Source: Candidatus Micrarchaeota archaeon (GTDB lineage: Archaea; Micrarchaeota; Micrarchaeia; Anstonellales; Bilamarchaeaceae). Taken from it: a DNA stretch of 64,000 nucleotides. How positions within the stretch are numbered: the first letter of the stretch is position 1; each line of letters opens with the position of its first letter. Of the stretch, positions 1,234 through 51,803 are shown piece after piece. A model generated the notes under the pieces. It saw only the letters and a list, made by a program, of their open reading frames with translations. It did not search any database and was not told the origin of the DNA. The stretch covers positions 22,172 through 86,171 of the forward strand of contig JBBSVN010000010.1 of assembly GCA_038046765.1 (NCBI GenBank), read 5' to 3'. The translations under genes and the position numbers were made by a program.

Positions 1234-2532
1234 ATGGAGAATGCACAACTGATGGAAATCCTCTTAGATTGGAATATCTGGAGAAAAGAAATTTATACGG
1301 GTATAGAACGAACTGATCAACTAGGAAAAATCGAAAAATTAGCTTCTTCAGAGCAGGTTACTGTTATCTCTGGCCCAAGAAGAGCTGGAAAATCTACGAT
1401 CATGCTTCAATACTTAAAATCCCTGCTTTCAAAAGGCATAAAAAAAGAACAAACGTTATTTGTTAATTTTGAGGATTCACGTTTCATTAATCTTGATGTG
1501 AACACTTTAAACAAATTATATGCTATCTATAAACAAAATATAAATCCTTCATCAAAGTCCTACATTTTTCTTGATGAAGTTCAAAAAGTTCTATCCTGGG
1601 AGCGCTTTGTGCGTGGATTACATGAAAGAAAGGAAGCAAATCTTTTTGTATCTGGTTCCAACTCGCAATTGCTAAGTTCGGAATACGGGACTTCGCTAAC
1701 TGGCAGGCACTTAGACTTAGAGATTTATCCTCTTTCTTTTAAAGAGTTTTTATCTTTTAATTCTATTAGTGTAGCTGACAACCTAGATTACGTCTCAAAA
1801 AGAGACACTCTCAAAAACTTATTTAACGAGTATCTTACTTATGGTGGTTTTCCGAAAGTTGTTCTTGAAAAAGAAAATAAAAAGGAATTACTTAAGACAT
1901 ACTTCGAGGATATCCTTTTTAAGGATATAATAAATAAATACAAGGTTCGGGAAAGCGAAAAGTTAAGCACACTTGCATATTACTATCTAAGTAATATTTC
2001 TTCTGCGCATACGATTAATAGTATAAGCAAGTTCATTCCTCTTTCTAATGATACACTTGATCGTTTTTCACAATATCTTAACCAAGCTTATTTACTATTT
2101 TTTGTTCCCAAATTTTCAACTTCTTTAAAAGAGCAAGCTATAAATGCAAAAAAAGTATATGCAATTGATACTGGTTTAAAAAATATGGCAGGTTTTAAGC
2201 ATAATGAAGACTTTGGAAAATTACTTGAAAATCTTGTTTTCCTTGAACTTAAAAGGCAAAAGAAAGAAATTTATTACTGGAAAGATCGTTATGATTACGA
2301 AGTGGATTTTGTTATTAAACAAGGTCTTAAGCCAAGTAATCTGATCCAGGTTTGCTGGGATTTATCAAATGAGAAGGTTAAGCAAAGAGAAACGCGATCA
2401 TTAGAACGGGCAATGGAAGAATACAAGTTAAATGAAGGCACAATAATTACGCAAGACTACGAGGGTGAAGAAAATATTGGCGGTAAAAAAATACTATATA
2501 AATCAGCAGTTAAATGGTTTTTAGGTATTTAA
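1234..2532 (+). CDS. AAA_14/DUF4143-type ATP-binding protein with C-terminal PD-(D/E)xK-like domain
   Basis: Walker A GPRRAGKS, Walker B IFLDEVQ, VSGS, GGFP, KKVYAIDTG, LLENLV, YEVDFV...IQV. Confidence 0.9.
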   Translation: MENAQLMEILLDWNIWRKEIYTGIERTDQLGKIEKLASSEQVTVISGPRRAGKSTIMLQYLKSLLSKGIKKEQTLFVNFEDSRFINLDVNTLNKLYAIYKQNINPSSKSYIFLDEVQKVLSWERFVRGLHERKEANLFVSGSNSQLLSSEYGTSLTGRHLDLEIYPLSFKEFLSFNSISVADNLDYVSKRDTLKNLFNEYLTYGGFPKVVLEKENKKELLKTYFEDILFKDIINKYKVRESEKLSTLAYYYLSNISSAHTINSISKFIPLSNDTLDRFSQYLNQAYLLFFVPKFSTSLKEQAINAKKVYAIDTGLKNMAGFKHNEDFGKLLENLVFLELKRQKKEIYYWKDRYDYEVDFVIKQGLKPSNLIQVCWDLSNEKVKQRETRSLERAMEEYKLNEGTIITQDYEGEENIGGKKILYKSAVKWFLGI

Positions 2533-8782: not shown

Positions 8783-9676
8783 TTAACCTGCACTTTCAAT
8801 TATTTCTTTAAATAAAAAATAACTCTGCAATCCGCTTATTCTTACGATATAATAATTTCCTTCTATTCTAGTTTCTATAGCGTTGTATGCCTGCGGAGAA
8901 TTGTAATAAATTTGATTGTCTATAGCTTTTTTTACTACTATTTGCTTATTTTTATCAAAGTAAATTTCGATTGTTGGAGTTCCTTTAATTCCAATTGATT
9001 GTCCATAAATTAAATCATTTTCAATTTTTTGAAGAGTTTGGTTATTATCATAGCAATTGCTAAATTTATTTATGTCCAAGTTAAGTAGTCCTGCATATTT
9101 TTTGAATATGTTATCTGCTGCCCTTGGAACTACAATAATCCATTCTGAAGATCTGTCGTATAATAAATTATGCATTTGCCAAAATTCTCCCTGTTCGTTT
9201 GCACATCTGGCTGCCTTTGCAGATTGTAGTGCCTTATCATGAAAATCAAGCGGAAAATCCTTATAATATATTACTACTTTGTTCAGGCTCACATAGTTTC
9301 TTATTATTAGTTTTTCCACATCGCTATAATACGAATTACAAAAAGGACACTGAAAATCGCTAAAAACTACTATTTTTATAGGGGCATTTACATTGCCTAA
9401 ATATATTGCATTTTTGTCATCAAAAAGACCATTACCGTCGGAATAATTTAAAGTAAAGTTTTCAGAATAGTTATCTGTTTGGTTAAACTTATTTTGACTT
9501 GGTTTAGATAATAAAATCATCGTTCCTAAGAATAAAACCTCCAAGATAATTAGAAATATTATTGCATATATTAATTTTGTACCTATTGACATTATCTCTT
9601 CTTTAGTAGTTTTGGTTCTGCCTAAGTTTGGCTCTTGCAACTGTTTCTTTTTTATTTTTGAATTTTTATCTGTCAT
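8783..9676 (-). CDS. Membrane-anchored DsbA-family thiol-disulfide oxidoreductase
   Basis: FSDFQCPFC, DFPL..H..A..AA.CA.EQG.FW, GTPT cis-Pro loop, N-terminal TM. Confidence 0.9.
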   Translation of the reverse strand: MTDKNSKIKKKQLQEPNLGRTKTTKEEIMSIGTKLIYAIIFLIILEVLFLGTMILLSKPSQNKFNQTDNYSENFTLNYSDGNGLFDDKNAIYLGNVNAPIKIVVFSDFQCPFCNSYYSDVEKLIIRNYVSLNKVVIYYKDFPLDFHDKALQSAKAARCANEQGEFWQMHNLLYDRSSEWIIVVPRAADNIFKKYAGLLNLDINKFSNCYDNNQTLQKIENDLIYGQSIGIKGTPTIEIYFDKNKQIVVKKAIDNQIYYNSPQAYNAIETRIEGNYYIVRISGLQSYFLFKEIIESAG

Positions 9677-9678
9677 AG

Positions 9679-10035
9679 CTATAAAACCTTTGCTAATTTT
9701 GAAAGATAATTTTTTGCAAAAACTAATGCAGATTTACCCTTTTCGCTAAGTATGTAATATTTTCTTCTTTCTTCGAAAGCTGATTCTATAAGTTTCTCTT
9801 CTTCAAGTTTATATAAGACTACATATATCATTATTTTATTTGGTTTAAATGAAAATTTTTCTTCAATTTCACTATCAAGTGCATAAGCATATGCCTTTTT
9901 TCTGGCTTTTATTATTGAAAGTATTGCAAGCCATATGTTACCGTAGCTAAGTGAGTGAACAAGTCTTCTGATTGTTTTTAAGTCATACTCTTTTTCAAGT
10001 TTTATTTCATTTGTGCCCTTACCTTTGATTCGCAT
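9679..10035 (-). CDS. PadR-family transcriptional regulator
   Basis: YAY.L...I....F.P..I.IYVVLYKLE...LI....RRKYY.LSEKG. Confidence 0.85.
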   Translation of the reverse strand: MRIKGKGTNEIKLEKEYDLKTIRRLVHSLSYGNIWLAILSIIKARKKAYAYALDSEIEEKFSFKPNKIMIYVVLYKLEEEKLIESAFEERRKYYILSEKGKSALVFAKNYLSKLAKVL

Positions 10036-10096: not shown

Positions 10097-11326
10097 TTGA
10101 AGGTAAATTCAATGACTTTAAAATTATTTTTAGTTCTATCTGTTTTAGCTATTTTCTCCACCTTGTCTTTTGCAACTATTAATCTTGATGATTTTTTCTT
10201 TAGTTTGCCACTTATAATAATTATCGTTGTCATATCTTTTGCTCTTCTATATATGCTAAGCCAGATGATTAATTCTCCTGCATTAAATGCTTGGGTAAAA
10301 ACAGAAATCAGGGAACTTATAATTGGTGCGATACTTTTTGGGATCGTATATGTCCTCTTTTTTAGTCCAAGTGTGCTAGGAACCGGAAAGGATATTTTTG
10401 GTATAATTATTGGTAAACCAAATTACGGTTCTGATGCTTCAGCATTTCTTTCTACAATGATTAATACTTATGCAAAGCAAGCATACATTGACGATCTTAA
10501 GGCATCTTATTTGATTGGTTTACAGTCTGCTTATTCAACATCGCTCGCAGCGAGTTTGTTTATAATTGGGTTTAACACCGGAGGAACTCCTTACTCTGGT
10601 TACAGCGCATTTTCAACATTCTTAAGTCAGGCAACATACGGTCTTACAAATGTAATTTTCATTTATTCTGCTTTAGCCGTTTTACTGGATTTCTTCCTAT
10701 TTTCAATCCCAAAACTAATTTTTGTAGCATTTGCATTTAGGTTCATTCCATTTACGCGGCAGATGGGAAATACGCTAATCGCGATTATGCTTGCTGCTTA
10801 TGTAGTTTTCCCATTCTCAATATTACTAGTCCAGGAACTTCATACATTAATAAGCCCATTTCCAACTCCAACAATTACGCGATTTAATGAGTTTGAATTT
10901 GGCCTTCCAGCAGGAATGAGTTTTGTTTGCAGTAAAACCACCGGAATTCCAATACGATTTATGCTTGCATTTTTTGGTGAAATCGGTTTCTCACTAGGCC
11001 CGTGTATTATTGTAGGTATCGCAACACTTGGTTATGGTTTTTGGCCATGCTTTTTGAATTTGGCAGACTGGGTTTTTCCGCTTGTAACCTCTATTGCCAG
11101 TCTTTACTTTAATGCTCAGGTTGCGCTCTCGACATTTTCCGTAAGTGATAATTCCGATGTAATATTTGCGATACTAAAACCATTTTTAATGGCAGTTAAT
11201 AATCTGGTTGTAATTACTTATCTTGATCTGATAATCATTTCAACTTTGACTTATATCAGTGCAAAGAGTTTCTCCGCGGCATTAGGAGGGGAATATTTCT
11301 TACCCGCAGTTTCGAGGCTGGTCTAA
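10097..11326 (+). CDS. Polytopic membrane protein, CedA/VirB6-like paralog 1
   Basis: YML..INSPALNAWVKTE; RFIPFTRQMGNTLIA..YVVFP; C-terminal SAALGGE. Confidence 0.6.
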   Translation: MKVNSMTLKLFLVLSVLAIFSTLSFATINLDDFFFSLPLIIIIVVISFALLYMLSQMINSPALNAWVKTEIRELIIGAILFGIVYVLFFSPSVLGTGKDIFGIIIGKPNYGSDASAFLSTMINTYAKQAYIDDLKASYLIGLQSAYSTSLAASLFIIGFNTGGTPYSGYSAFSTFLSQATYGLTNVIFIYSALAVLLDFFLFSIPKLIFVAFAFRFIPFTRQMGNTLIAIMLAAYVVFPFSILLVQELHTLISPFPTPTITRFNEFEFGLPAGMSFVCSKTTGIPIRFMLAFFGEIGFSLGPCIIVGIATLGYGFWPCFLNLADWVFPLVTSIASLYFNAQVALSTFSVSDNSDVIFAILKPFLMAVNNLVVITYLDLIIISTLTYISAKSFSAALGGEYFLPAVSRLV

Positions 11327-12438
11327 TGTCTTGCTTATGTGATTCTGCTTACTTAGAAAAAAATATGATCGCTTCAGCAAGTGACAAATTGCACAACAAA
11401 AAATTCATCTTTTTAATCGCGTTCTTTATATTCTCGATCTTGCCAAATCTGTCTTTTGCAGATGGCTTAACTTCATGCAGTTTAAACTACATTGATATTG
11501 CAAATAGTGGGATGGGCGCTTACATAGGCGTATCATTTATGCTTATGGTCATTTTACTTATTTTAGCATATCTATTTGGTACGATGACACAAAATGCAAA
11601 TCTTCTTGCATTCTACAAAGATGAGCTTTATCATGTATTATTTTCAGCAATACTCTTAGTGTGCATAAGCGGCATATTCTACTTTTCATGCGTTTCACTA
11701 AGTGCGTTTTTAGATTTTACACTTACCCAGCTTGGATCAAGCGCTTGTTATAGCGGTGTCGAAGCCCCTTCTACTGTTGCAAGTTGCTATTTTTCAGGTA
11801 TCGAAGTCAGACTTAGAACATTTGTTTCACAAGGGATAAAACAAAGCCTGCAAAATGAGATGGAATCAACTGTAATGCTTATGATAAATAATCCTATTAC
11901 TGGTTCGACATATATGCCATTAACTGCATACAAAAAAGCATATGCATCTCAATTTGACATGGTTGTAAATAGCTTTGTCATGCCTGCTTTAGTGAGTATT
12001 ACTATGCAAAAAACATTGATCAAAATTTCTTCCGCTCTAGTTCCGTGGCTCGTTGCTATAGCATTTTTTTTAAGGGTGTTTATGCCAACAAGACAAATGG
12101 GAAATATGCTTATTGCAGTTGGTCTTGCGCTTTATATTGTTCTTCCGACAATGTACGCAGTAAACGGTGCGATGGACGAATTGATATTTAAAGATTGCAA
12201 TAGTTATAGGAGTTTAGTGGCGGATGAAGTTATGGGTGGAATTACACGAAGTGTTACTGGAACTGGTCCAAATCAGCAAGTGCAACCAGTTGTTGATGCA
12301 TCAGCATGCACTTCAAACACGAGCTTTTGGATAATCGCGAGCAGCATGCCACAGGCATTTTTCCTGCCAAATTTAACTCTCGCTCTTGTAATTACCTTTA
12401 TCGCAGGTATAAATAAAGCACTAAAAACAATTGGTTGA
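11326..12438 (+). CDS. Polytopic membrane protein, CedA/VirB6-like paralog 2
   Basis: AYLFG...LLAFYKDELYHVLFSAIL; RVFMPTRQMGNMLIA..YIVLP. Confidence 0.6.
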   Translation: MSCLCDSAYLEKNMIASASDKLHNKKFIFLIAFFIFSILPNLSFADGLTSCSLNYIDIANSGMGAYIGVSFMLMVILLILAYLFGTMTQNANLLAFYKDELYHVLFSAILLVCISGIFYFSCVSLSAFLDFTLTQLGSSACYSGVEAPSTVASCYFSGIEVRLRTFVSQGIKQSLQNEMESTVMLMINNPITGSTYMPLTAYKKAYASQFDMVVNSFVMPALVSITMQKTLIKISSALVPWLVAIAFFLRVFMPTRQMGNMLIAVGLALYIVLPTMYAVNGAMDELIFKDCNSYRSLVADEVMGGITRSVTGTGPNQQVQPVVDASACTSNTSFWIIASSMPQAFFLPNLTLALVITFIAGINKALKTIG

Positions 12439-12439
12439 C

Positions 12440-14722
12440 ATGAAAAAAATATTACTACTGTTATTAATTTCATTTGTGCTCTTTGCGAGTTTTACTTATG
12501 CTTTAGCTCCATCCGCAAATGTTGCAGCAGTAGATAGAGCAACTTCCAATTCTTCATTTGATCTGTTAAAAGACTGGCGTGCAATATCTCTAGCTGTAAC
12601 AATGCTTGTAATTGTAATAATCGCAATCGCTTACGCTGTTGGACATGGGTTTGAAATTCCTGAATTAAAAGCATGGGCTGCAACAGAGCTCGCTCAGGCG
12701 GTCGCCACTATATTAATTATTGTTGCATTTGTAGGAGTAATTACTTTTCTTGACGGCATAACCGTTCAGATTATACAAAATTCCAATTTGCCATTTACAT
12801 GTACTAATTCACAAAATTGCGCAGTACTAACCGCAACCAGCTATTTAGATAGTTTAATCGATGTTGCAAATTCACAGGTGCTTGACCGGATAAAAGACAG
12901 CATTACAGCAGGCAGGACTGCCGGGTATAGGGGAGGAATGTATGCGACACAACTTATTTTTCCAATTCCATTATTACAAATATCCGCTTCAGGGTCTGCT
13001 GCAGCAGGTTATGTTTTAGACCTAGAGCGAAATATGCTTCTTATTGAAAACCTTGGAAACCTAATCTCTATTCTTTCATCACAGCGATTTTTTATTTCAC
13101 AGATTTCATACAATGTTGCTCCAGTAATTCTTGTACTTGGTATAATTGCGCGTTCATTCTTTTTTACAAGAAAATTAGGTGGGCTTCTAATTGCGATGGC
13201 AATAGGTATTATGTATGTACTTCCGCTTATGTATGTTGCCAATTGGATTACACTAAATATTACTCTTTTTGGAGATTCTATAATTACACCTGTTGCGCAG
13301 GATTGTCCCTTGTCATGTACTATTCTCCCGCCAAAGTTCTATTCTGGCAATCAGCCAATACAATCCAAAACAAATCTCCTTGGTTTTTATGGGATAACTA
13401 CAAACCCGGCAGTTAATCAAATAAATCCCGCCATTGCTATCGCTACGCAAACTCAGTTAAATCAAATGCAGGATTTAGAAGACGGATATTTGCAAACATT
13501 AACAATTAATGGCCGAACTGCTTATTCATGTGAAGTCGCAGCAGGCGGACCAGTTACACCAAAACAGCCTATTTTTAATGGTGTTGTTACTGGAGGTTTG
13601 CAAGATGTTATATCTGATAATTCTGATAATTCTGATAATTCTGATACTTTTTCCTCTAATAAAAAAGTTGCATTATTTATTCCAGGAGGTTCTGGAACAG
13701 GAGGCAGCGGATCGGGAGGTTCAGGAAACAGCAATCCATGCGGACAATGTCCTTCTAATCAAATTTGTGATAGTTCTGGGTCGCGTCCAGTTTGTGTTCC
13801 AGACCCAACTCCAAGTGGTTCTGGTATCGGTAGTTCTGGTTATTGTCCATACGCATGCAGGGAATTACCTTACCCATACAATCAACAATGTACGGGGGTC
13901 GTAGAAATAAATAATAAAAACCAAACTGCAGCACAGACAAGAACTGCATGCAGCAATTTACCTGTGGTTTGTAAAGTAATCCGTTATGTAAATCCTAAAA
14001 ATCCTTACTTTGATAATGATGGAATTCCAAACACTGCTGATGATTATGTACTTGATCAATATTCTCCAAACTATCAAAGACCTGCTGGTGTTGCAGCAAC
14101 TTCTTTAGTTGTACCAACATGTCCAGTGCAATGCCGAACAACTCCTCCTTTAGCAAATAACTGTATTAATAGTCAATCTGCTTCGATTACATTTAACGGT
14201 CAAACCAGAACTTATAACGGGCAATGTACTTCTGCACAAACCTTCTGTTTGTTTACGGAAAAAGCTAATGGAGTAATTCTAGGAAATGCCCCGACTGCAT
14301 GCAAAACTCCTCAGGCATCACCAGCGCAAATGGCAAATAATTTGGCATGCGTTTCCAGTTTAGTCGCAACACAATCATGTAAATATGTAATCCCTGGAGA
14401 AAGTTTAACTGATAGTGGCATATGCGATAAATGTATTTTTGTTCCTAAAGAATTTACTTTTGATCCGCCTATTTATCAGGACTGTTCAGCAAGGTGCGGT
14501 CAAGGCAATGCCGGTCCTCCATTAATTAATCCAGCAGAATTTTCAAGAAGAACACAGCAGTGGATGGTTGGCAGACCGGAAATTGTTTCAGTTTCAGCGC
14601 TCATGTTCCCAGCTTATGTTTTGCCACTACTCGACATACTTGTAGTTTTAATGTTTATCCGTTCATTTTCATCAATCTTGGGTGGAGATATTGAAATCCC
14701 GGGATTAGCTAAAATATTATAA
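12440..14722 (+). CDS. CedA/VirB6-like paralog 3 with large Cys-rich extracellular insertion
   Basis: AYAVG..FEIPELKAWAATE; RSFFFTRKLGGLLIA..YVLP; SSILGGD; insert of over 400 aa with repeated CPxxC. Confidence 0.6.
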   Translation: MKKILLLLLISFVLFASFTYALAPSANVAAVDRATSNSSFDLLKDWRAISLAVTMLVIVIIAIAYAVGHGFEIPELKAWAATELAQAVATILIIVAFVGVITFLDGITVQIIQNSNLPFTCTNSQNCAVLTATSYLDSLIDVANSQVLDRIKDSITAGRTAGYRGGMYATQLIFPIPLLQISASGSAAAGYVLDLERNMLLIENLGNLISILSSQRFFISQISYNVAPVILVLGIIARSFFFTRKLGGLLIAMAIGIMYVLPLMYVANWITLNITLFGDSIITPVAQDCPLSCTILPPKFYSGNQPIQSKTNLLGFYGITTNPAVNQINPAIAIATQTQLNQMQDLEDGYLQTLTINGRTAYSCEVAAGGPVTPKQPIFNGVVTGGLQDVISDNSDNSDNSDTFSSNKKVALFIPGGSGTGGSGSGGSGNSNPCGQCPSNQICDSSGSRPVCVPDPTPSGSGIGSSGYCPYACRELPYPYNQQCTGVVEINNKNQTAAQTRTACSNLPVVCKVIRYVNPKNPYFDNDGIPNTADDYVLDQYSPNYQRPAGVAATSLVVPTCPVQCRTTPPLANNCINSQSASITFNGQTRTYNGQCTSAQTFCLFTEKANGVILGNAPTACKTPQASPAQMANNLACVSSLVATQSCKYVIPGESLTDSGICDKCIFVPKEFTFDPPIYQDCSARCGQGNAGPPLINPAEFSRRTQQWMVGRPEIVSVSALMFPAYVLPLLDILVVLMFIRSFSSILGGDIEIPGLAKIL
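13613..13648 (+). repeat. In-frame 9-bp tandem repeat (TCTGATAAT x3 + variant) encoding SDN-SDN-SDN-SDT
   Basis: Read directly from the sequence. Confidence 0.9.
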
Positions 14723-14748
14723 TTGATAAATGGTTTATGTGAACCTCT

Positions 14749-15792
14749 ATGAAAAAATTAAATTTATTTGCTTTCATTTTTGCGTTTGTTGCAATGCTCG
14801 CAATATCTACAGTTAGTTTTGCCGCCCCTCCTGCACCAAACCAATTTGACGCAAGCGGTAATTGGGTATCTACTGCTGCAATTGCCTTAATCGCAAGTGC
14901 TGCACTACTCGCCCTTATTTACATGGTCGGGCATGGGTTTGAAATAAACGAACTAAAAATGCTTGCAAACGAGGAGCTTTATCAGCTTGTTGTTACAATC
15001 GTAATCATCGGACTTCTTCTAGGAAGTACGAGTATACTAAATTCATTCTCATCAACATTTGCCCCAAGCGGTGCTACTAATTTTCAGGATGCTGCAATTT
15101 CTGCAGTACGAGCGAATCTTGCTGATCATCAGAGCATATATAATAATCTTAAGTCATTTAGTGTAGAGCTTGGAAAAGAATCTTCAAAAAGTTATTTTTG
15201 CAGTTTGCAAGGTGTAGGATTTTATGTAAGTCCTTGCAGTGCATTTAGCTCAATTTCGCCATCAGTTTCGCTCGCATTTCAAATTTTATCAGCTTCAATA
15301 GCTGAGTTAAATTCCCTTGACACTTTACTTAACTTTGCTAAAACTTATGGTTTTGCTGTTCTGCTTCCATTTGGAATTTTACTTCGGACATTAAAATTTA
15401 CTCGGGGCGCAGGCGGATTATTTTTAGGTCTTGCAGTTTCACTTTACATTGTTCTCCCATTATTAGTTATTTTTATGGATGTCTTACTAAATCCAGCTAC
15501 GGGTTATAATCCAACTGCATTTGGAATTCAGATACGTGCGCTTCCAATTCCGGAGTGCGATGAAACAAGTTTTGGCACGGTAACTGGAGGCATTTCCTAT
15601 GATAATTACGATGCGGCAGTAGGTACATTCCAATCGCTTTTAAACAATGTCAAAACTTACATTTACTATGCCTTAGTTCGTGGGACAATGTTGCTTGTAG
15701 TTTCATTGTTAGGTTTCTTTTCCGCGTTTAGGGCAATTTCAAAAGTAGCAGGAGCTGAAGTTGATATATCCAGTTTGATGAGGATAAGTTAA
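14749..15792 (+). CDS. Polytopic membrane protein, CedA/VirB6-like paralog 4
   Basis: IYMVGHGFEINELKMLANEELYQ; RTLKFTRGAGGLFLG..YIVLP; SKVAGAE. Confidence 0.6.
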   Translation: MKKLNLFAFIFAFVAMLAISTVSFAAPPAPNQFDASGNWVSTAAIALIASAALLALIYMVGHGFEINELKMLANEELYQLVVTIVIIGLLLGSTSILNSFSSTFAPSGATNFQDAAISAVRANLADHQSIYNNLKSFSVELGKESSKSYFCSLQGVGFYVSPCSAFSSISPSVSLAFQILSASIAELNSLDTLLNFAKTYGFAVLLPFGILLRTLKFTRGAGGLFLGLAVSLYIVLPLLVIFMDVLLNPATGYNPTAFGIQIRALPIPECDETSFGTVTGGISYDNYDAAVGTFQSLLNNVKTYIYYALVRGTMLLVVSLLGFFSAFRAISKVAGAEVDISSLMRIS

Positions 15793-15798
15793 TGATTA

Positions 15799-15886
15799 GC
15801 AATGAGCATTGGGCAATGGGCATTGGGCAACGTACAGTTAGTTTCGTAGCCCACAGCTCAAGGCTCAAACGCCCAAGGCTCAAGGC
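15799..15886. repeat. Intergenic inverted heptamer-repeat element
   Basis: AATGAGC ATTGGGC AATGGGC ATTGGGC facing GCCCACA GCTCAAG GCTCAAA GCCCAAG GCTCAAG. Confidence 0.8.
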
Positions 15887-15897
15887 AAAGTGATATT

Positions 15898-17031
15898 ATG
15901 GTATTAGCAAACATCTGTGCGCAAGGCGCTCAAAGTACGGTTGCATCGTTCATCTATCCATTAGTATTATCTGTTTCAGTTTTCGCAGCAATCGTAATCG
16001 GTTTAGCATACATGTTAGGTCAGTCAATAAACAATCCAAAAGTTACACTCTGGGCTAAAACAGAAGCTGTGCAATTGGTCGTTTCTGCAATTGCCGCAGT
16101 AATTATTTTACAATCCGTGGGTGTATTTTGTACAATTGATGCGATGTCAATTTATCAACTTTTTAATGTCCCGCCCCCACAAATTCCGCAGGTAGCTGGC
16201 CAGCCGCAGTCATCTATTTCGATTTATAATGCAGCAGAACTTTATCTTGTTACGGGAGGTTCTTACGTAAAAAGTGTAGCTGATAGCGCGAGGTATCATC
16301 TTGGCGGATATAATATGCTCCAGTCATTTGGAAGAAATCTTTGTCTTGGTAGTACTACTTCACCCGTTTCTGGATTTTTAAACATAATCTTTTGTCTTTA
16401 TGGAAACGGAATAATTGGTGGCGGCAGTAGCAGTGCTGGAATTGGTACTGGCACAAGTATACGTCCTGATTCTGGATACGGGTTTCTTTCAGCGGCAGTT
16501 GGTTTTGCATTTAACTCTGCACTGTTTTCTTACGTTTCTATTTTGAACTATTTATTTATTTTTAAATATATTTTTAGCGGGTTTGTTTTATTCTTTTTGC
16601 CACTAGGTATTTTCTTTAGATCATTTCCATACCTAAGAGGATTTGGTTCATTATTGATGTCTGTTTCAATTGCGTTTCTGTTTGTTTATCCACTGATGCT
16701 TGCGTTCTTTTACATTGATATTGGAGCAACAAATTCGATACTCGCTCCAAAGAATTCTCCAGCTTTATTATACTCATCTGATTCGCCAGGAAAAGTAGGG
16801 ATTGCAGCAGTTACTGGTTTTAAAAATAGCATTTATGATGATGTGTTTGACAAACCCTCTTCAAATAATGGTGAACAAAGTTTCGAAGTTCTTAAGTTAA
16901 CAGGAAATGCATTTTTAGTTGGGGTTTTTATTCCAAGTTTAGCTCTTTTAAGTGCAGCTGCAGCAGTTTCTTATATTAACAGATTCCTAGGTGAAGAAGT
17001 AGATTTAAGTAGGATAGTTCAGATAGTTTAG
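15898..17031 (+). CDS. Polytopic membrane protein, CedA/VirB6-like paralog 5
   Basis: AYMLGQSINNPKVTLWAKTEAVQ; RSFPYLRGFGSLL..FVYP; RFLGEE. Confidence 0.6.
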   Translation: MVLANICAQGAQSTVASFIYPLVLSVSVFAAIVIGLAYMLGQSINNPKVTLWAKTEAVQLVVSAIAAVIILQSVGVFCTIDAMSIYQLFNVPPPQIPQVAGQPQSSISIYNAAELYLVTGGSYVKSVADSARYHLGGYNMLQSFGRNLCLGSTTSPVSGFLNIIFCLYGNGIIGGGSSSAGIGTGTSIRPDSGYGFLSAAVGFAFNSALFSYVSILNYLFIFKYIFSGFVLFFLPLGIFFRSFPYLRGFGSLLMSVSIAFLFVYPLMLAFFYIDIGATNSILAPKNSPALLYSSDSPGKVGIAAVTGFKNSIYDDVFDKPSSNNGEQSFEVLKLTGNAFLVGVFIPSLALLSAAAAVSYINRFLGEEVDLSRIVQIV

Positions 17032-17054
17032 CAATTATAATATGTGATTTATCT

Positions 17055-18125
17055 ATGCCAAATCCAATTTGTTCCGGTTTCATGTGCAATTTCGAACCTT
17101 CTATGCTTGGGGGTTTAGCTCCCGATATGCAATGGTTTGTAATTGCCTTAACTGCCTCAATATTAATTGTAATAATTCACGCAACAATACTCGCATTTTC
17201 ACGTGCGCTTAATATGAATGAACTAGAACGCTATGCAAAATCAGAAATTTTAAATGCGGTTGCCACTTCTTTAATGGTAATATTTTTAGTTTCAACACTT
17301 GGTGCTATGGAGAGTTTTGCACTAAACTCTTTTCTTGGGTGCGGTCCTGGTGGAACTAATTGCCCAACATTAACTTGCGGGGGATCACCAGTACAAATTA
17401 GTGACCTTAAATCATCAGTTGATTTACTTAAGTGCAGACTTAGTGATAAGGCCGCTGGTTTTGCGCAAGTTCAACAACAGATTATACAAACTTCGGTAAG
17501 TGGAAATCCATTTAGTGTTTTTAACAGATTACAATTCTATCTGGGACTAATGGGTGTGCCAATATTTTCCGGACAATACGTTACTGCATGGTTTAAGGAA
17601 GCAGAAACATATCGTTTACTTAATAGTTTTATTACTACATTTTTAATTGGTTCAAATACTTTAATTGTAGCTGCTGAATACGTAAAAAATAACATGCTTT
17701 CATTCTATCTTCCAGTTGGACTGCTACTAAGGGCATTTCCTTATACAAGAGGCATAGGTGCATTCTTTATTGCACTAGCTTTAGGGATGTACTTTGTTTA
17801 TCCTGTTTTATACATAATAACTGATCCTGGGTTTGTAAAACCCAGTTACACTCCTTCACAAGCTCCTCCAGCTAGTGGCCTTTGTTACCCAACATTTAGT
17901 TCAATTAGTTTTGCGGTTTCTTCACAAAATACTCTTTCCCCATCAGGTGGCAGTACTGATTTATCTGCTAGTGCGCTTGCTAGTGATTTATCTCAGGTTT
18001 ACACATCATTATTACTTCAGCCGTTTATTGTATTTGCCATGACAATGGTGTTTGTCAGATACGCAACATACATTTTTGGTGGCGAGCCAGCCGATATTTT
18101 AAGAGCAGTTGCAAAAGTGGTTTAA
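17055..18125 (+). CDS. Polytopic membrane protein, CedA/VirB6-like paralog 6
   Basis: RALNMNELERYAKSE; RAFPYTRGIGAFFIA..YFVYP; IFGGE. Confidence 0.6.
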   Translation: MPNPICSGFMCNFEPSMLGGLAPDMQWFVIALTASILIVIIHATILAFSRALNMNELERYAKSEILNAVATSLMVIFLVSTLGAMESFALNSFLGCGPGGTNCPTLTCGGSPVQISDLKSSVDLLKCRLSDKAAGFAQVQQQIIQTSVSGNPFSVFNRLQFYLGLMGVPIFSGQYVTAWFKEAETYRLLNSFITTFLIGSNTLIVAAEYVKNNMLSFYLPVGLLLRAFPYTRGIGAFFIALALGMYFVYPVLYIITDPGFVKPSYTPSQAPPASGLCYPTFSSISFAVSSQNTLSPSGGSTDLSASALASDLSQVYTSLLLQPFIVFAMTMVFVRYATYIFGGEPADILRAVAKVV

Positions 18126-18178: not shown

Positions 18179-19057
18179 ATGCAGAACAATCCTTCACTAT
18201 TAAGTACAGGTAAAATAAAAAACAAAATCTATATGGTAAGAGATAAACAAGTAATGCTTGATTCTGACCTTGCAGAACTTTATAATGTCCCGACTAAAGT
18301 ATTAAATCAAGCGGTTAAGAGAAGCATCCAAAGATTTCCTATAGATTTTATGTTCCAAATATCAAAAAATGAATTTGAAGGTTTGAAGTCACAATTTGTG
18401 ACCTCAAGTTGGGGTGGTAGAAGAAATTTACCATACGCTTTTACAGAACAAGGGGTAGCTATGCTATCTGGAGTTTTGAAAAGTGATACTGCAATAAGGA
18501 TAAGTATTGAAATAATAAACGCATTTATTCGAATGAGAAAATTTATGTTCTCAAATGCCAACATATTTTATAGATTGGACATTGTGGAAAAAAAGCAAAT
18601 AGAACATGATCAAAAATTTGATCAGGTATTTGACGCAATACAAAGTAAAGATATCAAACCTGAAAAAGGAATATTTTTCGATGGACAGATATTTGACGCA
18701 TACAAATTTCTTTCAGATTTAATTAGAACTGCTCAAACATCTTTGGTTCTAGTTGACAATTATATCGATGATTCAGTTTTGACGCTTTTTAGCAAGAGAA
18801 ATAAAAATGTACAAGTTACAATATTTACTAAAGAGATTTCTAAACAATTACATCTTGACTTAACTAAATACAATTCACAGTATCCAATTATTAAAGTAGT
18901 AGAGTTTAATCAGTCTCATGATCGGTTCCTTATAATTGATAATAAAGAAGTTTACCATATCGGTGCTTCACTAAAAGATTTGGGTAAAAAATGGTTTGCA
19001 TTTTCAAAGTTTGACAAAGACGTACTTAATATACTTGATAAGCTGGCGATAAAATGA
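18179..19057 (+). CDS. ORF6N DNA-binding domain protein with C-terminal PLD-like domain
   Basis: QVMLDSDLAELY.V.TK.LNQAVKR..RFP.DFMFQ; PYAFTEQGVAMLS; SHDRFLIID..YHIGASLKD. Confidence 0.88.
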   Translation: MQNNPSLLSTGKIKNKIYMVRDKQVMLDSDLAELYNVPTKVLNQAVKRSIQRFPIDFMFQISKNEFEGLKSQFVTSSWGGRRNLPYAFTEQGVAMLSGVLKSDTAIRISIEIINAFIRMRKFMFSNANIFYRLDIVEKKQIEHDQKFDQVFDAIQSKDIKPEKGIFFDGQIFDAYKFLSDLIRTAQTSLVLVDNYIDDSVLTLFSKRNKNVQVTIFTKEISKQLHLDLTKYNSQYPIIKVVEFNQSHDRFLIIDNKEVYHIGASLKDLGKKWFAFSKFDKDVLNILDKLAIK

Positions 19058-22000
19058 AAAACATAAATTTTGGTTTATTTACGATACTCGGAATTCTTCT
19101 TTTCGTATTCATTAGCGGTTGCACTGTAAAACAAAATGCAACAATTGGCTGTTGTGTAATTGATACAACTAACCCAAACAGTCCAACTTGTAAAAGCTTA
19201 AAAGGAACTACATCTGCAGGAATTGCTTTAGTTAATACTAATTCATGCAATACAAATCTTGGAACTTGTAACATTACTATTGGTATTACGCCTCAAACAG
19301 GATCGCAATCCGGAGTTAATACTCAGGATAATAATTATCAAACCACAACAGTAAATGCGCCAATATGTTCTAATCGTGCATTTACCTGTATTTCCGATAG
19401 TTGTTTTGCACAAGTCTGCGGTCCATTTAAGTATCAGCCACAACCCGTTCCAAGTTTAAGCGATACAGTTACATTTAGTAAATCGGGCAGTTCAAGTTAT
19501 TCATTTAATTCAAATCGTGCGCCACTTTCAATAAATCTTTACGGGACAACGTGTTTAGTAGTTCCTGCAAATGAAACTTTAAAAAACGTTCTTGAAAACT
19601 CTAAAGGAAGCGCAGTAAACATTTTTAGGTTTGGAATTGGTAACACTTTTGAAGAATTTGAAACCTACAGATACTTGTTCCCATTTACTGATACTGCATG
19701 CAATATTAATACATTTTCAACAAATGTAAAAGACCGTTACTTAAATTACATGCTTAGTCCAACTGAATTCCAGAACATGAAAAGTGATTCTGGACGGCTA
19801 AGCGGATCTGGGTGGCGTAATACTGGAACTGGCGGTGCTCCGGTGCAAGTAACATATCCATGGCAAAGAGTTGCAACAGATAATTTCTGCCCCCAGACAA
19901 CTGTTTCTCCATTTTTAGGTTCAATAAATAACTTCAAAGGAAGCGATGGAATAAATTATAAATTCAATTCATCAGTCTGGAGTTCTGTTTACCAGCCAAG
20001 TATAAGAAACCCCCCTACACAATCTCCCCCATCTACATTTTCGCGAGCACTTGATAAAACATTTTACCGGAATTTCCTTCCATTAATTTACGAAGATGAT
20101 ATGGCTCAAGGAATAACCAGCGCGTCTGGCCCAGTCCCAGCTCCATTTGAATGCTCAAGTCCAATTGAATGCAGTTCTGGATATTGTAATTTCGTTGATT
20201 ATAGCCGGAATCTATGCAAGAAAACTTCGGGTAGTTCTACTACCTGGGTTGAATGCGGATGCAATTCTTTAGGTCTATCCTGCTTTGGAGGAACAACAAC
20301 ATTTAGTTACCTTCCTGGTGTTGGAAAACCAAATTCTGCAGCTGATTTGAATGCTTATATTAATGCATATACGAGTGCGAACTTAAACGATCCTAATTCG
20401 CAGCCACAAGATTTCTATTCTAAAAATAATCCTATTCTTACACTTAACTATGCTGGTGTTCAGCCTAGTTGCAGTGGTTTTCTTACTAGTTTAGTAGCTG
20501 GTGTACAAATAGTTGAAGATCAAGGAACATGTGTTATTGCAGATGATGGGATTGCAACTTGTACGCTTAGCGCTGGTTATAATGGAAATGATGAACAAAC
20601 AGAAAGTCTCACTTCAAGAGGCCCGGCAACAGTCCGTGTAAAAAATCTCAATTCGTTTTCTTTCCCAAAAGGAATCCAATTATTTGGTGAAATTAAAACG
20701 GGCGGTTATGTTGGTTATACTCTTTTATCTGAGCAACAATTGCAAGCTAGCGATTTTGGACGAAGATGCGGACCACTAACTAACGGAGTAGATTATGTGA
20801 TTAAGCAACCAAACAAGATACAGTACGGTAGGAATACTGGTCAACCATCAGATTACGAAGAACCTGATAGCAATGGCCCAGTTAGTAATGCATATGCTGT
20901 TGGGACAATAATTCGGCCGCCACCAGCACAAGAAACATCGCCTCCTGCATGGCTTAATAGTGATGATAGTACTTTTGCGGATGTTATTCTATTTACAGGA
21001 GCGCAAAGCCTAAAAACTTCACCAAGTAGTTGCGATGATGAAGGGGGATGGGATCATTATATTTATGCTCAACAATATATTTTCTTAAAAGCAAATAATG
21101 GTAAAATCGGGACATGTGATTTAGACTCTAATTCTCCAGGTTTGCCTGTTACAAAATCATTTGGCTGGTGCGAAGCATGCAGTTATGCGACGCTTTCTAA
21201 ACAAATTGTGACTTCATCTGCTGCAGCTTATAATCCCTCTGCAATTACCTACAGCAGGAATTTTGAAAATCCCCAAACGCAGACAAAAGTTACTCCTCTT
21301 CTTTCGAATGGAAATCCAACCAAGTATCGGTCAGCAGTAAGTAATCCTGTTGAACCATATCTGGAGCAAAAGCAGGATAAATATTTGCAAGAAGGAGTTC
21401 TTCCTGTTTTTGATTTGTCTGATCAAGGCAATTGGGTTTCTAAAACCGCAATGTTAAATCCGCAAGATCCTTCGCAGTCAGCTTCTGACGGTGCTTTGAT
21501 ATCTGCGAATTTATTTAGTAATTATATGGATGCATACCCCTACATAAAAAATAATGTCGGACCTTCCATGGTTATTGTTGGGAATATAAGTCTTAGTCAA
21601 CTTTCCGGTTCAAGTTTACCCTCTTCAATCGTTTTTAGACAAGTAAGAAGACCAAGCGCTCAAACTATTTATGATTTACAAGTTGAGGGTGTTGGGCCAA
21701 ATTTCATCTTTGATGAAACCCGCAATACTGTATCTAATCCCAACCCACCCGTAGATACCAGGTCATCAACCCAAATAGAAAACATTCCTGTAGGAAATTA
21801 TATTTATAAAATACAGGTTGATAAATCAGTTACAGTTGTTCCATGTCTATCTGGCCCTCCAAAACCGTATACTGAATCTTTTAATGTCCAAATAAACATT
21901 TTAGATCTTAATAATAACCAAGTTTCACCTACAATAAATCGTCCAATTCCAGTTAGTATACCTAACAATTGCCCAATTGTTGCCCTAACTGGTCCATCAA

Positions 22001-23388
22001 CTACTGTGCAAATCCCAGTTGTTCCGTTCTTAACTATATTTAAAGAAAGAATTGATTCAGCAAAGTTAGCCTGCTCAAAATGCTTACTTGGTTTTAGAAT
22101 TTTAAATAATAATTTGCAAGGGTCGACTAGAAGAGTTGCTGATATTGCAACTTTAAACGCAGTCGATGCATACGATCTTAGTCAAAAATCAGATACAACT
22201 AAAACAATCCTGGACAAAATTGATTTTGTCGCATACAGTTTCTATCCGGATGAATACACGCAGGAAGATAATAGTTTATGTGGAAGTACTGCAAACAATC
22301 AAAATATAATTTCACAGTTAGAAAATCTTTCAAGGACTACGCTTTACGATTCTGGCAAGCTTTCACTTATAAGCGACTTTTCAATAAACTCTGCTGATTC
22401 GCTTTGCTGGAGCGATGCACAAAAACAAAACTTTATTTCTTATATGCTAACAAAACAAAGAACGCTTTCAAGTGCGGGATTAATGGGTGTAATATATTCT
22501 GATGTTTCCGGATTAAAATCAGGCGGGACACCTTATACAAACACAAATGCATTTTGTGATCTTAATTCGGGTAGTAAATCATTTGTTGCTGACCCTCCTG
22601 TTACTGTTTATACTAAAATTTATACTAGTCCATCTGTTACTTGTGAAGAATGCAATGAATTAGATTACACACTTGGAAAATGCAATTCTGCTGATACTAG
22701 TCCTGTTCCAAGAAGCGAATTATGCGATAACAATGTTGCCTGTACTTTGCCAAATAGTGCTACACGAAGTCCTACAACACAATTTAAATGTCCTGAAAAA
22801 ACAATTCCAGACCCATGCGTTCCATGTTCGAGTGTTCAAAATAGTTTAGATTGTAAAATCTATAGAAGCGATGGAACTGTTAATCAGGTACCTTATGACA
22901 TTAATACACTTAATGATTTATCCGCAGATGTTATCGCAAGTATTCCTCGTCAAACAAACAGTGTTTGCTGTCTTTTAGAAACTAATTCGCAAGCTAGCTC
23001 GGGTGCAGCTGGGGGAGTTCAACAACCAGCTACCCGAAGCTATACTTATGTAAAACAAACTGCTGCTGGAAGAAACGTTGCGCCAATTGTTTTTTCAGTT
23101 TCTGGAGACCCGGCTGATGATTGCGGTATTCCGGATTCAAGTAGTATCGGTTCTAATATCTGCGGTTCTGCAACTCCAATTAAAAATTATCAGATAAGTT
23201 GTACTCTTGTTGATAATAGTGCAGTTGTAAATCCATTAGCTGGCGGGAGTGGAACGGGTGTTATTAATCCGGCTGGGGGCGGAAGCCCACCTACTCCTGG
23301 CCCAGGCGGTGGAGGGGGAATAATTTCTCCGGGTGCTGGCGGAAGCGGAGGTAGCAGTGGAAATGCTGGTGGAAGTGGAGGGAACTAA
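19054..23388 (+). CDS. Very large Cys-rich surface protein (lipoprotein-like), Gly/Pro-rich C-terminal tail
   Basis: ISGC lipobox-like motif, numerous paired Cys, S/T/N/P-rich, 1444 aa. Confidence 0.75.
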   Translation: MKNINFGLFTILGILLFVFISGCTVKQNATIGCCVIDTTNPNSPTCKSLKGTTSAGIALVNTNSCNTNLGTCNITIGITPQTGSQSGVNTQDNNYQTTTVNAPICSNRAFTCISDSCFAQVCGPFKYQPQPVPSLSDTVTFSKSGSSSYSFNSNRAPLSINLYGTTCLVVPANETLKNVLENSKGSAVNIFRFGIGNTFEEFETYRYLFPFTDTACNINTFSTNVKDRYLNYMLSPTEFQNMKSDSGRLSGSGWRNTGTGGAPVQVTYPWQRVATDNFCPQTTVSPFLGSINNFKGSDGINYKFNSSVWSSVYQPSIRNPPTQSPPSTFSRALDKTFYRNFLPLIYEDDMAQGITSASGPVPAPFECSSPIECSSGYCNFVDYSRNLCKKTSGSSTTWVECGCNSLGLSCFGGTTTFSYLPGVGKPNSAADLNAYINAYTSANLNDPNSQPQDFYSKNNPILTLNYAGVQPSCSGFLTSLVAGVQIVEDQGTCVIADDGIATCTLSAGYNGNDEQTESLTSRGPATVRVKNLNSFSFPKGIQLFGEIKTGGYVGYTLLSEQQLQASDFGRRCGPLTNGVDYVIKQPNKIQYGRNTGQPSDYEEPDSNGPVSNAYAVGTIIRPPPAQETSPPAWLNSDDSTFADVILFTGAQSLKTSPSSCDDEGGWDHYIYAQQYIFLKANNGKIGTCDLDSNSPGLPVTKSFGWCEACSYATLSKQIVTSSAAAYNPSAITYSRNFENPQTQTKVTPLLSNGNPTKYRSAVSNPVEPYLEQKQDKYLQEGVLPVFDLSDQGNWVSKTAMLNPQDPSQSASDGALISANLFSNYMDAYPYIKNNVGPSMVIVGNISLSQLSGSSLPSSIVFRQVRRPSAQTIYDLQVEGVGPNFIFDETRNTVSNPNPPVDTRSSTQIENIPVGNYIYKIQVDKSVTVVPCLSGPPKPYTESFNVQINILDLNNNQVSPTINRPIPVSIPNNCPIVALTGPSTTVQIPVVPFLTIFKERIDSAKLACSKCLLGFRILNNNLQGSTRRVADIATLNAVDAYDLSQKSDTTKTILDKIDFVAYSFYPDEYTQEDNSLCGSTANNQNIISQLENLSRTTLYDSGKLSLISDFSINSADSLCWSDAQKQNFISYMLTKQRTLSSAGLMGVIYSDVSGLKSGGTPYTNTNAFCDLNSGSKSFVADPPVTVYTKIYTSPSVTCEECNELDYTLGKCNSADTSPVPRSELCDNNVACTLPNSATRSPTTQFKCPEKTIPDPCVPCSSVQNSLDCKIYRSDGTVNQVPYDINTLNDLSADVIASIPRQTNSVCCLLETNSQASSGAAGGVQQPATRSYTYVKQTAAGRNVAPIVFSVSGDPADDCGIPDSSSIGSNICGSATPIKNYQISCTLVDNSAVVNPLAGGSGTGVINPAGGGSPPTPGPGGGGGIISPGAGGSGGSSGNAGGSGGN

Positions 23389-28131: not shown

Positions 28132-28413
28132 GTGAATAATTTGTACGAACACGTATCTATAATCGGTGAAAGAGGTCAAATTACAATTCCAAAAGACATT
28201 CGGGAAGTTGAAGGACTTAAAGAAAAAGATAGAGTAATAATTAAAATTGAAGATAATAAAATAGTTATCGAAAAAATCACTACTGTTCAAAAGAAAAAAC
28301 AAATTGAGTTACTAAAAGAAGGGTACAAGAAACTTGGTAAATTGTCCCTTGAAATAACAAAAGAATTTGAACATGCTGATAAAAGTGCAAACAGGTTTTT
28401 AGATGATTATTAA
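28132..28413 (+). CDS. AbrB/MazE/SpoVT-family antitoxin
   Basis: IGERGQITIPKDIR..GLKEKD.V; overlaps the toxin start. Confidence 0.85.
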   Translation: MNNLYEHVSIIGERGQITIPKDIREVEGLKEKDRVIIKIEDNKIVIEKITTVQKKKQIELLKEGYKKLGKLSLEITKEFEHADKSANRFLDDY

Positions 28414-28750
28414 ACGTGGCGATGTAATTCGAGCTGACCTTGAACCAGTAAAAGGTTCAGAACAAGGTAAAATTAGACCCTGTTTAGTAATCCAAAATGA
28501 CATTGGTAATTCCTTTAGTACAACAACAATAATTGCTCCGCTTACATCACGGATCGAAAATGAAGATTATCCATTTGTAGTTTTTGTAAAAGCTGGTGAA
28601 GGTGGGCTCCCAAAAGATAGCCTAGTTTTACTTAATCAAATAAGAACTATTTCAATGGAGAATCGGATTTTAGATAAATTAGGTTCACTATCAAACGAGA
28701 CGATGAAAAAAGTTGACAATGCTTTAAAAGTTAGTTTGTCTTTGGATTAA
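28403..28750 (+). CDS. mazF: PemK/MazF-family endoribonuclease toxin
   Basis: RGDV..ADLEPVKGSEQGKIRPCLVIQND..N..S.T.I.APLTS; QIRTI. Confidence 0.93.
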   Translation: MIIKRGDVIRADLEPVKGSEQGKIRPCLVIQNDIGNSFSTTTIIAPLTSRIENEDYPFVVFVKAGEGGLPKDSLVLLNQIRTISMENRILDKLGSLSNETMKKVDNALKVSLSLD

Positions 28751-47889: not shown

Positions 47890-48411
47890 TTATTCTTTAT
47901 GAAATTTCTTTTTGTCCTTGTTAATTTGGGCTTTTGAAGCAAACTTTCCATAAGGTGTTTCCTTCACCTTGCTTTTATCAATTAGTTTATCCTTATGTAA
48001 AATTATTGTATTTCCATAATATCCAAGCAATTTGGCTATTTTCTTTGCCCTAAAAGTTTTTTTGTTTAAATTTCTTTCAATCCTTTTTTTCAAGTCTATT
48101 CTCTTACTGATTATTCCATTTACAATATGCACTGTCTGTGATGGCCTAGGGTTAATTCCAAAAAAATTTTCTGCAGTAGCACAACTATAATAAAATTCTT
48201 TAGTTTTAAGGAACATTCGAACAGTTTTGGACAATATTGCTAATGGTTTTTCAATAAACCAAGCATCTCTTTCTTCTTTACTTGGTATATAATATATTCC
48301 TTTAAATGGTGTTGGAAATATATCTAAACTCGCGCTCATATTCTTTATTTCTTTTGAAGTTAAACCTTCTTCTAGTAATTGTTTGTAACTTATAATTTGT
48401 TTAGGCAACAT
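47890..48411 (-). CDS. AbiEi-like putative antitoxin
   Basis: FKGIYYIP...YYSCATA..FFG..P..VHIVN; overlaps AbiEii stop; very basic. Confidence 0.55.
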   Translation of the reverse strand: MLPKQIISYKQLLEEGLTSKEIKNMSASLDIFPTPFKGIYYIPSKEERDAWFIEKPLAILSKTVRMFLKTKEFYYSCATAENFFGINPRPSQTVHIVNGIISKRIDLKKRIERNLNKKTFRAKKIAKLLGYYGNTIILHKDKLIDKSKVKETPYGKFASKAQINKDKKKFHKE

Positions 48412-51680: not shown

Positions 51681-51718
51681 CAGGTGTAATTATTTTTCTT
51701 TCTTTTCTTATTAAAATA

Positions 51719-51795
51719 TTACATTTTAGTAAATCCATTCGTCAAGATGTATACATTATAGTAAATCAATTTGCTAAAATGTAATAAATTAGCTA
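51719..51795. repeat. 77-bp direct repeat (two tandem 32-bp palindromes), downstream copy of ATPase 51804..53009
   Basis: 71/77 identical to 53042-53118. Confidence 0.95.
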
Positions 51796-51803
51796 GTTTT
51801 TGC

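Follow-up and report, generated by a model that had tools for sequence, protein, structure and literature searches.

A conserved array of six VirB6/CedA-like membrane proteins in Micrarchaeota, likely part of a Ced/Ted-like machine

Introduction

The described systems closest to the locus reported here are Ced of Sulfolobales, with CedA and its paralog CedE, Ted of Thermoproteales, with TedA, and the type IV secretion systems (T4SSs), with VirB6. The locus is an array of six tandem genes, p1 to p6, in a stretch of 64,000 nucleotides (nt), called the window, from the genome of a Candidatus Micrarchaeota archaeon (GenBank assembly GCA_038046765.1, contig JBBSVN010000010.1). We conclude that the array likely encodes six anciently diverged VirB6/CedA-like inner-membrane subunits, which would form the channel or platform of a Ced/Ted-like machine that is chromosomally encoded and descends from type IV secretion. 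In the solved T4SS of plasmid R388, the VirB6 protein TrwI sits at the center of the inner-membrane complex beside VirB4, as a homo-pentamer at the stalk base with TrwJ/VirB5. The rvh T4SS of Rickettsiales, which are host-dependent bacteria with reduced genomes, has tandem diverged VirB6 paralogs (RvhB6a-e) with large soluble extensions. For Ced, excerpts of a Saccharolobus study propose that the paralogs CedA and CedE form a hetero-oligomer and that CedB and CedD together supply the VirB4 function (PMC11868833).

The array is like Ced and Ted in being archaeal and chromosomal, in the roughly five membrane helices of its proteins, the third and fourth of which show profile similarity to CedA, and in its partners, a CedB/VirB4-like ATPase and a VirB2/CedA1-like pilin. 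It is further like Ced in that multiple paralogs (CedA and CedE) can act together there, as excerpts of PMC11868833 have it, and in a hint of a pilin-like N-terminal hairpin, excerpts of PMC9905601 reporting that the CedA N terminus resembles the pilin CedA1. Unlike Ced and Ted, which have one or two paralogs, the array has six fixed paralogs, lies in a DPANN phylum, and shows no sign of an ultraviolet or DNA-damage context. Arrays of its type also have large, predicted extracellular inserts and a giant secreted protein as probable partner, and the VirB4 of the system appears to be split into two N-domain proteins and a separate ATPase.

Structurally, the p4 model has its best long match in TrwI/VirB6 of R388, whereas the family has no sequence-profile match to TrbL/TrwI and consists of six different subunits; VirB5, VirB8, VirB9, and VirB10 were not seen with the array. 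Unlike the rvh T4SS, which is bacterial, belongs to diderms, and has about five VirB6 copies, the array is archaeal with six copies. It would be an independent expansion, and the two are likened here by description only. The T4SS of Patescibacteria, which is MPF-FATA-like, is comparable in being near-universal and chromosomal in ultra-small episymbionts and in having VirB4 and VirB2-like pilins, but it is bacterial, and the excerpts of its description report no six-fold VirB6 array (PMC12102498). We found no published account of this family, or of a T4SS- or Ced-like system in Micrarchaeota, in the full-text literature, a coverage that largely leaves out subscription journals and supplements. 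What comes nearest, again from excerpts, is a report that the giant proteins of nanohaloarchaea contain a VirB4/TraG-like domain (PMC10266531).

Results

The six-gene array

The genome of the window is archaeal, 1.5 Mb in 20 contigs, and 89.7% complete; the present NCBI name for Candidatus Micrarchaeota, borne by near relatives in public data, is Microcaldota. As a sequence-only reading had stated, window positions 10097 to 18125 are filled by six co-oriented, tightly packed paralogs, all open reading frames (ORFs) on the forward strand, with neighbors spaced from an 8-nt overlap up to 105 nt (Table 1). The start of p1 is probably ATG 10112, giving 404 amino acids (aa), rather than TTG 10097; the database copy (P0002) has 404 aa. 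Proteins of this family are labeled hypothetical in public records.

In a MAFFT alignment of the six, p2 to p6 are 18 to 24% identical to p1, and E70, R215, R221, G224, V237, and P239 (p1 numbering) are invariant. These residues belong to the central R..F.TR..G......V.P motif, which bears out the central R..P/F.TR..G motif read earlier from the letters, and to an N-terminal motif, of which the E is invariant as claimed but the Y is present in five and the G in four of the six paralogs. The C-terminal motif, read earlier as LG(G/A/E)(E/D), holds as G[GAE][ED] in all paralogs but p2 (LGGE, LGGD, AGAE, LGEE, and FGGE), with the leading L absent from AGAE and FGGE. A family profile built without p3 and without the contig 4 copies recovered p3 at an E value of 6.9e-35 and seven more paralogs from the same genome at E values of 2e-17 to 6e-32. 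The likeness among the paralogs is thus beyond chance.

The 105-nt gap between p4 and p5 (15793 to 15897) contains the short direct repeats gggcaatgggcattgggcaa and ctcaaggctcaaacgcccaaggctcaaggc. In one aquifer metatranscriptome, contigs cover stretches of p4, p5, p6, and the giant gene downstream with zero mismatches at a depth of 2 to 3.5. Most of the array is uncovered in this single RNA run that contains any of it, a gap that has no bearing on expression; since such a library may contain DNA, these contigs only hint at transcription.

TABLE 1 Genes of the array, the giant gene downstream, and candidate partner genes of the same genome (window positions unless a contig is named)
Feature	Position	Strand	Basis or remark
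p1, position-1 VirB6/CedA-like paralog	10097-11326	+	ORF, 409 aa from TTG 10097; family alignment
p2, position-2 paralog	11326-12438	+	ORF, 370 aa; start overlaps p1 stop; lacks C-terminal G[GAE][ED]
p3, position-3 paralog	12431-14722	+	ORF, 763 aa; large insert at about nt 13250-14590
p4, position-4 paralog, most CedA-like of the six	14749-15792	+	ORF, 347 aa; CedA/CedE profile matches, AlphaFold2 model
p5, position-5 paralog	15898-17031	+	ORF, 377 aa; family alignment, tree
p6, position-6 paralog	17055-18125	+	ORF, 356 aa; family alignment, tree
Giant secreted protein, 1444 aa, 49 Cys	19054-23388	+	One N-terminal hydrophobic segment, Gly-rich tail
N-domain protein, ATPase, zinc ribbon, coiled-coil protein	Contig 2, 60521-64211		
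ATPase	Contig 2, 61311-62942		System-ATPase profile, E 1.9e-241
Second ATPase module	Contig 4, 73226-75649		
Second ATPase	Contig 4, 73525-74961		System-ATPase profile, E 2.3e-148
Second N-domain gene, beside lone 13th paralog	Contig 4, 101849-102703		
244-aa protein	Contig 16		
Weak pilin candidate	Contig 2, 51693-52073		Neighbor-derived profile, E 3e-14
Weak pilin candidate	Contig 12, 34649-34906		T4SS_pilin, E 2.4e-3; Mbov_0395 pilin-like family, E 5.9e-4

Conservation across Micrarchaeota

The family profile matched 2,911 cluster representatives at E values of 0.001 or less among 1.84 billion, and the family is present in 111 of 121 Micrarchaeota genomes (these tallies include one unpublished genome, G029). 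Genomes of the window's own order carry about 13 to 15 copies, and those of sister families carry about 4 to 9. We fetched 38 loci from 35 genomes to examine the array itself. Exactly six tandem co-oriented paralogs were found in 35 of them, and contig ends truncate the remaining three; the operon conservation that had been proposed as a check across DPANN is seen within Micrarchaeota.

We built a tree from the 222 proteins of 37 complete arrays and the lone 13th copy of the window's genome (contig 4, 102725 to 103768), 223 proteins in all, and it separates them largely by their position in the array. The position label requires 11 changes on this tree, compared to a minimum of 6 and a shuffled mean of 144; position 1 forms one clade, as does position 6, and nearest relatives follow taxonomic family. 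Because the position label tracks the tree, the six-fold duplication and the gene order are older than the split of these lineages. Judging from the tree, each position is orthologous to the same position in other genomes and the gene order is fixed, which agrees with the old expansion proposed from the divergence of the six.

The window's genome has 13 family ORFs, namely, the window array, a second six-gene array (contig 4, 20308 to 28872), and the lone copy. Its two arrays group with two distinct array types that coexist in related genomes as well, which fits block duplication. In the second array, an inserted 136-aa gene on the reverse strand (contig 4, 26594 to 27004) separates paralog 1 from paralog 2.

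Partner genes of the array

We examined the neighbors of 40 arrays (the 38 fetched loci plus the genome's own two). In 19 of these, all from three sister families, the six genes lie in one co-oriented cluster. Small proteins (about 120 to 170 aa) and a membrane protein of about 244 aa precede the six paralogs. After them come two ~277-aa proteins that are paralogs of each other, an ATPase (about 505 aa), a small protein (about 100 aa), a membrane protein with a zinc ribbon, and a coiled-coil protein (about 245 aa). An ATPase was found at most six genes downstream in 19 of the 40 arrays, and a VirB4-N-domain-like protein was found in 20.

One of the small proteins (locus L048, 4875 to 5303) scores over the Pfam cut-offs of two pilin families, TrbC/VirB2 (PF04956; 30.0 versus 27.9 bits) and T4SS_pilin (PF18895; 29.3 versus 26.6 bits). 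The ATPases of the system carry DUF87, AAA_10, and P-loop_TraG domains. CedB was the best match for two of the three that we scanned, the contig 2 and contig 4 ATPases of the window's genome (E values, 1.6e-22 and 1.3e-27), and for the third, from L048, CedD came narrowly first (1.7e-18 versus 2.1e-18 for CedB). The VirB4-like CD1110 also matches the two ATPases of the window's genome (1.8e-20 and 4.5e-25).

A model of one of the ~277-aa partners (269 aa; predicted local distance difference test score [pLDDT], 85.7) has a membrane hairpin of two helices and, after it, an alpha/beta domain, and its ten best Foldseek matches in the PDB are all TrwK/VirB4 (E values, 3e-3 to 7e-2; probability, 0.93 to 1.00). 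In this model the protein resembles a VirB3-plus-VirB4-N-domain unit that has been separated from the ATPase. This N-domain family occurs in 111 of the 121 genomes and is absent from exactly the ten without the array family, although the shared absence reflects few independent events because the ten genomes make up whole taxonomic families.

A search of the window's genome for VirB4/CedB ATPases and pilins, which the sequence-only reading had called for, located ATPases on contigs 2 and 4 and weak pilin candidates on contigs 2 and 12 (Table 1). The window itself holds a HerA-type ATPase (53123 to 54631, reverse strand), which we rejected as a partner: it matches the system-ATPase profile at only 8.5e-10 and is an ordinary HerA with a HAS barrel and DUF87.

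Sequence similarity to CedA, CedE, and the pilins

Residues 163 to 246 of p4 match the NCBIfam model of CedA (NF041796; E value, 7.4e-4; 19.2 bits) and that of its paralog CedE (E value, 2.5e-3). The CedA model is an equivalog of 259 positions with a curated cut-off of 330 bits. Run over six-frame translations, it matched at E values of 0.05 or less in 43 of the 121 genomes (best E value, 8.3e-7; 27.4 bits). Among the 53 matches listed, the 10 best and nearly all others cover profile positions ~53 to 247, mostly ~100 to 200, in frames of about 330 to 500 aa; the exception covers positions 6 to 38 (E value, 0.017) in a 42-aa frame with two stops. Thirty of the 53 lie in the fetched loci, and all 30 are inside family ORFs, 23 of them in position 4. 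No CedA match was found in the ten sampled genomes without the family, and among 14 control genomes the model matched only in Sulfolobus acidocaldarius and Bacillus subtilis. As their scores are far under the curated cut-off, the family members are, by this measure, not CedA orthologs.

With Pfam, no family came near its cut-off on p1 to p6; the best score was that of p4 residues 292 to 332 against TrbC/VirB2 (E value, 1.3e-3; 19.4 bits; cut-off, 27.9), and TrbL/VirB6 (PF04610) gave no match at E values of 1 or less. A PDB sequence search with the six-paralog profile returned AcrZ only (E value, 0.2). The most fitting place for the family is on a distant branch of the VirB6/CedA superfamily, not among the members of Pfam TrbL.

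The first (N-terminal) hairpin of the family aligned with the pilin profile in hhalign (P value, 7e-4; probability, 26%; 52 columns), which is a lead only, and the pilin profile also matches the N termini of two contig 4 paralogs (E values, 2e-14 and 8e-9). Two loci, L025 and L026 (genomes G103 and G006), have two tandem pilin-like genes of about 116 to 139 aa directly upstream of the array. One gene of each pair weakly matches the VirB6-like family profile (E values, 3e-5 and 1e-6), and these scores fit a common origin of the pilin and the channel N terminus.

Membrane layout and structural similarity to TrwI

Hydropathy indicates about five membrane helices in each of p1 to p6. The AlphaFold2 model of p4 (pLDDT, 77.9; predicted template modeling [TM] score, 0.70) has long helices at residues 35 to 63, 67 to 104, 164 to 214, 216 to 247, and 284 to 333. 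Together, the two point to an N-terminal signal-like helix, two membrane helices, and a loop of about 100 residues with a beta-hairpin. After this loop come two more membrane helices, which the basic R..F.TR..G loop connects, then a variable loop, and finally one more membrane helix with a short tail. The third helix, the R..F.TR..G loop, and the fourth helix form the most conserved region of the family.

In p3 the variable loop, between the fourth and last membrane helices, is an insert of about 450 aa. The whole protein has 26 Cys, and the position-3 proteins of related arrays are likewise enlarged (600 to 1100 aa). The positive-inside rule suggests that the basic loop is cytoplasmic, and because it is taken as such, the insert is predicted to face outwards and be extracellular. 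BLASTP found no similarity between the p3 insert and the 1444-aa giant protein encoded downstream (E values of 2 or more).

The Foldseek comparison with VirB6 that had been proposed for the array placed TrwI/VirB6 of R388 in the first three ranks for the p4 model (E values, 0.019 to 0.11; probability, 0.90 to 0.99; TM score, 0.30 to 0.40), led by 8rtd_L (E value, 0.019; probability, 0.99; TM score, 0.32/0.38), but no PDB match reached an E value of 0.001 or less. For p4 and TrwI, VIA-align aligned 231 to 236 of 261 residues with Z scores of 8.7 to 9.0, and in the top rows of a wide VIA search no other protein matched over nearly the full length. A complex prediction for p4 and p5 (alignments of 36 rows each) gave a score of 0.25 relative to a mark of 0.32, which speaks neither for nor against binding.

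The giant protein and other window genes

Neither Pfam nor NCBIfam has a family that matches the 1444-aa protein (Table 1). In 7 of the 40 arrays, all in the window's own order, a homolog comes after the array on the same strand, and from this synteny the protein is probably a surface partner of window-type arrays. Between p6 and the giant gene lies a gene for a 292-aa ORF6N-domain protein (18179 to 19057, forward strand; E value, 7.8e-34), which looks like an insertion because the giant gene directly follows the array in related genomes.

Upstream of p1 are genes for a membrane-anchored DsbA/thioredoxin-like protein (8783 to 9676) and a PadR-family regulator (9679 to 10035), both on the reverse strand, the latter running divergently from p1. 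The closeness of a disulfide oxidoreductase to the p3 insert and the giant protein, both Cys-rich and predicted to be extracellular, may be significant; in our neighbor clustering, neither the DsbA-like nor the PadR gene recurred beside other arrays.

A second giant protein (28878 to 33611, forward strand; 1577 aa) has several hydrophobic segments and no Pfam family, and BLASTP found no match between it and the 1444-aa protein. A MazF/PemK toxin gene lies just upstream of it (28403 to 28750). The window also has two AAA_14/DUF4143 ATPases (1234 to 2532, forward strand; 51804 to 53009, reverse strand) and an AbiEii toxin (48401 to 48994); genes of defense or toxin-antitoxin systems are common in this small genome.

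Discussion

The likeness to CedA and VirB6 that the sequence-only reading had proposed is supported by the p4 profile match, by the CedA matches across genomes, and by TrwI at the top of the Foldseek results, each of them weak as a single test. We therefore read the array as VirB6/CedA-like mainly from context and repetition, without a single strong match: a pilin, a split VirB4, and a CedB-like ATPase join CedA matches that are weak but recur.

Several results weigh against this reading. None of the 121 genomes reaches the CedA cut-off (27.4 bits at best, compared to 330), and CedA matched at E values of 0.01 or less in only 1 of 28 family members scanned singly. The profile check against TrbL came out negative: no genome of the 121 is over the PF04610 cut-off (gathering score, 25.9 bits), and of eight weak matches none was shown inside an array, three lie outside known arrays, and one is in a family-free genome. 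In hhalign, the family profile was not significantly similar to a TrwI-type profile (probability, 0.7% over 19 columns), although that profile is narrow, its 62 sequences being R388 TrwI, A. fabrum VirB6, and 60 TrwI-like homologs 51 to 92% identical to TrwI. The TM scores are modest (0.32 to 0.40), and a Z score of about 9 for TrwI is not above background, since IncA, an unrelated helical protein, reaches 8.8. Finally, no ATPase or pilin gene lies beside the array within the window, as had been said of the window from the outset, but in sister families the ATPase follows the array and the pilin precedes it.

If the array is such a VirB6/CedA-like platform, one copy of each subunit would assemble into a hetero-oligomeric inner-membrane channel or platform, for which a pseudo-sixfold ring is a guess. 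The basic cytoplasmic loop and the C-terminal LGGE tail would dock a hexameric ATPase, and the pilin would be extracted and polymerized on the six-subunit platform. The Cys-rich p3 insert and the 1444-aa protein would face outwards, toward the host cell. By analogy with Ced and Ted, the cargo may be DNA moving inwards, which is the least certain step. A bolder version, tentative and in our judgment rather doubtful, is that the six subunits make up a 1:1:1:1:1:1 hetero-hexameric ring of VirB6 type, in register with the six-fold ATPase, and thereby an asymmetric channel that would differ from the homo-pentameric TrwI/VirB6 stalk base of R388. At the heart of the long-sought cell-to-cell conduit, this ring would let Micrarchaeota take nucleic acids or other building blocks from the host, a DPANN counterpart of the Patescibacteria T4SS that is essential for episymbiosis.

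The same proteins with the same ancestry might move no DNA at all, serving instead as a pilus-assembly or adhesion platform, or as a conduit for RNA, nucleotides, lipids, or proteins needed by a genome-reduced episymbiont. We consider this unlikely, but it survives better than the other alternatives. The system occurs in most genomes of 0.6 to 1.6 Mb, where a lifestyle function fits better than occasional DNA repair, and two of its parts, the p3 insert and the 1444-aa protein, are large, Cys-rich, and predicted to be extracellular. Excerpts of published work add that 2,417 of 3,035 Patescibacteria assemblies have a comparable chromosomal T4SS (PMC12102498) and that T4SS-like tubes of one Patescibacteria bacterium have been linked to feeding on host RNA (2026 preprint, 10.64898/2026.06.21.733656). 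On the other side, CedB and CedD are the best or nearly the best matches of the ATPases, and Ced and Ted, the sole archaeal relatives tested, import DNA according to excerpts of PMC9905601 and PMC11868833.

It is much less probable that the array is an unrelated, lineage-specific membrane complex, for example, one that anchors the envelope or S-layer, and that its likeness to CedA and VirB6 is chance among helical membrane proteins. Such a complex would be in keeping with profile matches that all fall far under curated cut-offs, with a TrbL model that finds nothing in the arrays, with the lack of significance against the TrwI-type profile, and with fold scores within the range of unrelated helical bundles. 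However, one region of the CedA profile is matched in 43 of the 121 genomes, with every checkable match inside the family, and the operon linkage joins an above-cut-off VirB2 pilin, a VirB4 N-domain fold, and a CedB-like ATPase; both go beyond chance. The phyletic pattern is also identical to that of the VirB4-N-like partner.

We give almost no credence to the array being part of an integrated conjugative element instead of the core genome, despite the ORF6N-domain gene that separates the giant gene from the array, of a type often seen in phage and mobile DNA, and despite the frequent toxin-antitoxin genes in the window, because the family is in 111 of 121 genomes with nearest relatives that follow taxonomic family, the gene order is fixed, the G+C content of the array (0.35 to 0.39) compares with 0.30 to 0.39 around it, and the annotated neighbors include no integrase or relaxase (no search was aimed at a relaxase or a VirD4-type coupling protein).

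A VirB6/CedA-like reading of the array would extend T4SS-derived systems to a third archaeal lineage. It would also provide a natural case of a VirB6 channel made from six fixed paralogs, which bears on the stoichiometry of VirB6 relative to the hexameric ATPase. The array also bears on the question of how DPANN archaea obtain material from their hosts. For Micrarchaeota, the system described here is a concrete candidate machine, present in 111 of the 121 genomes, with parts that are now annotated as hypothetical and that may be given names: the pilin, the six VirB6-like subunits, the split VirB4, and the giant surface proteins rich in Cys.

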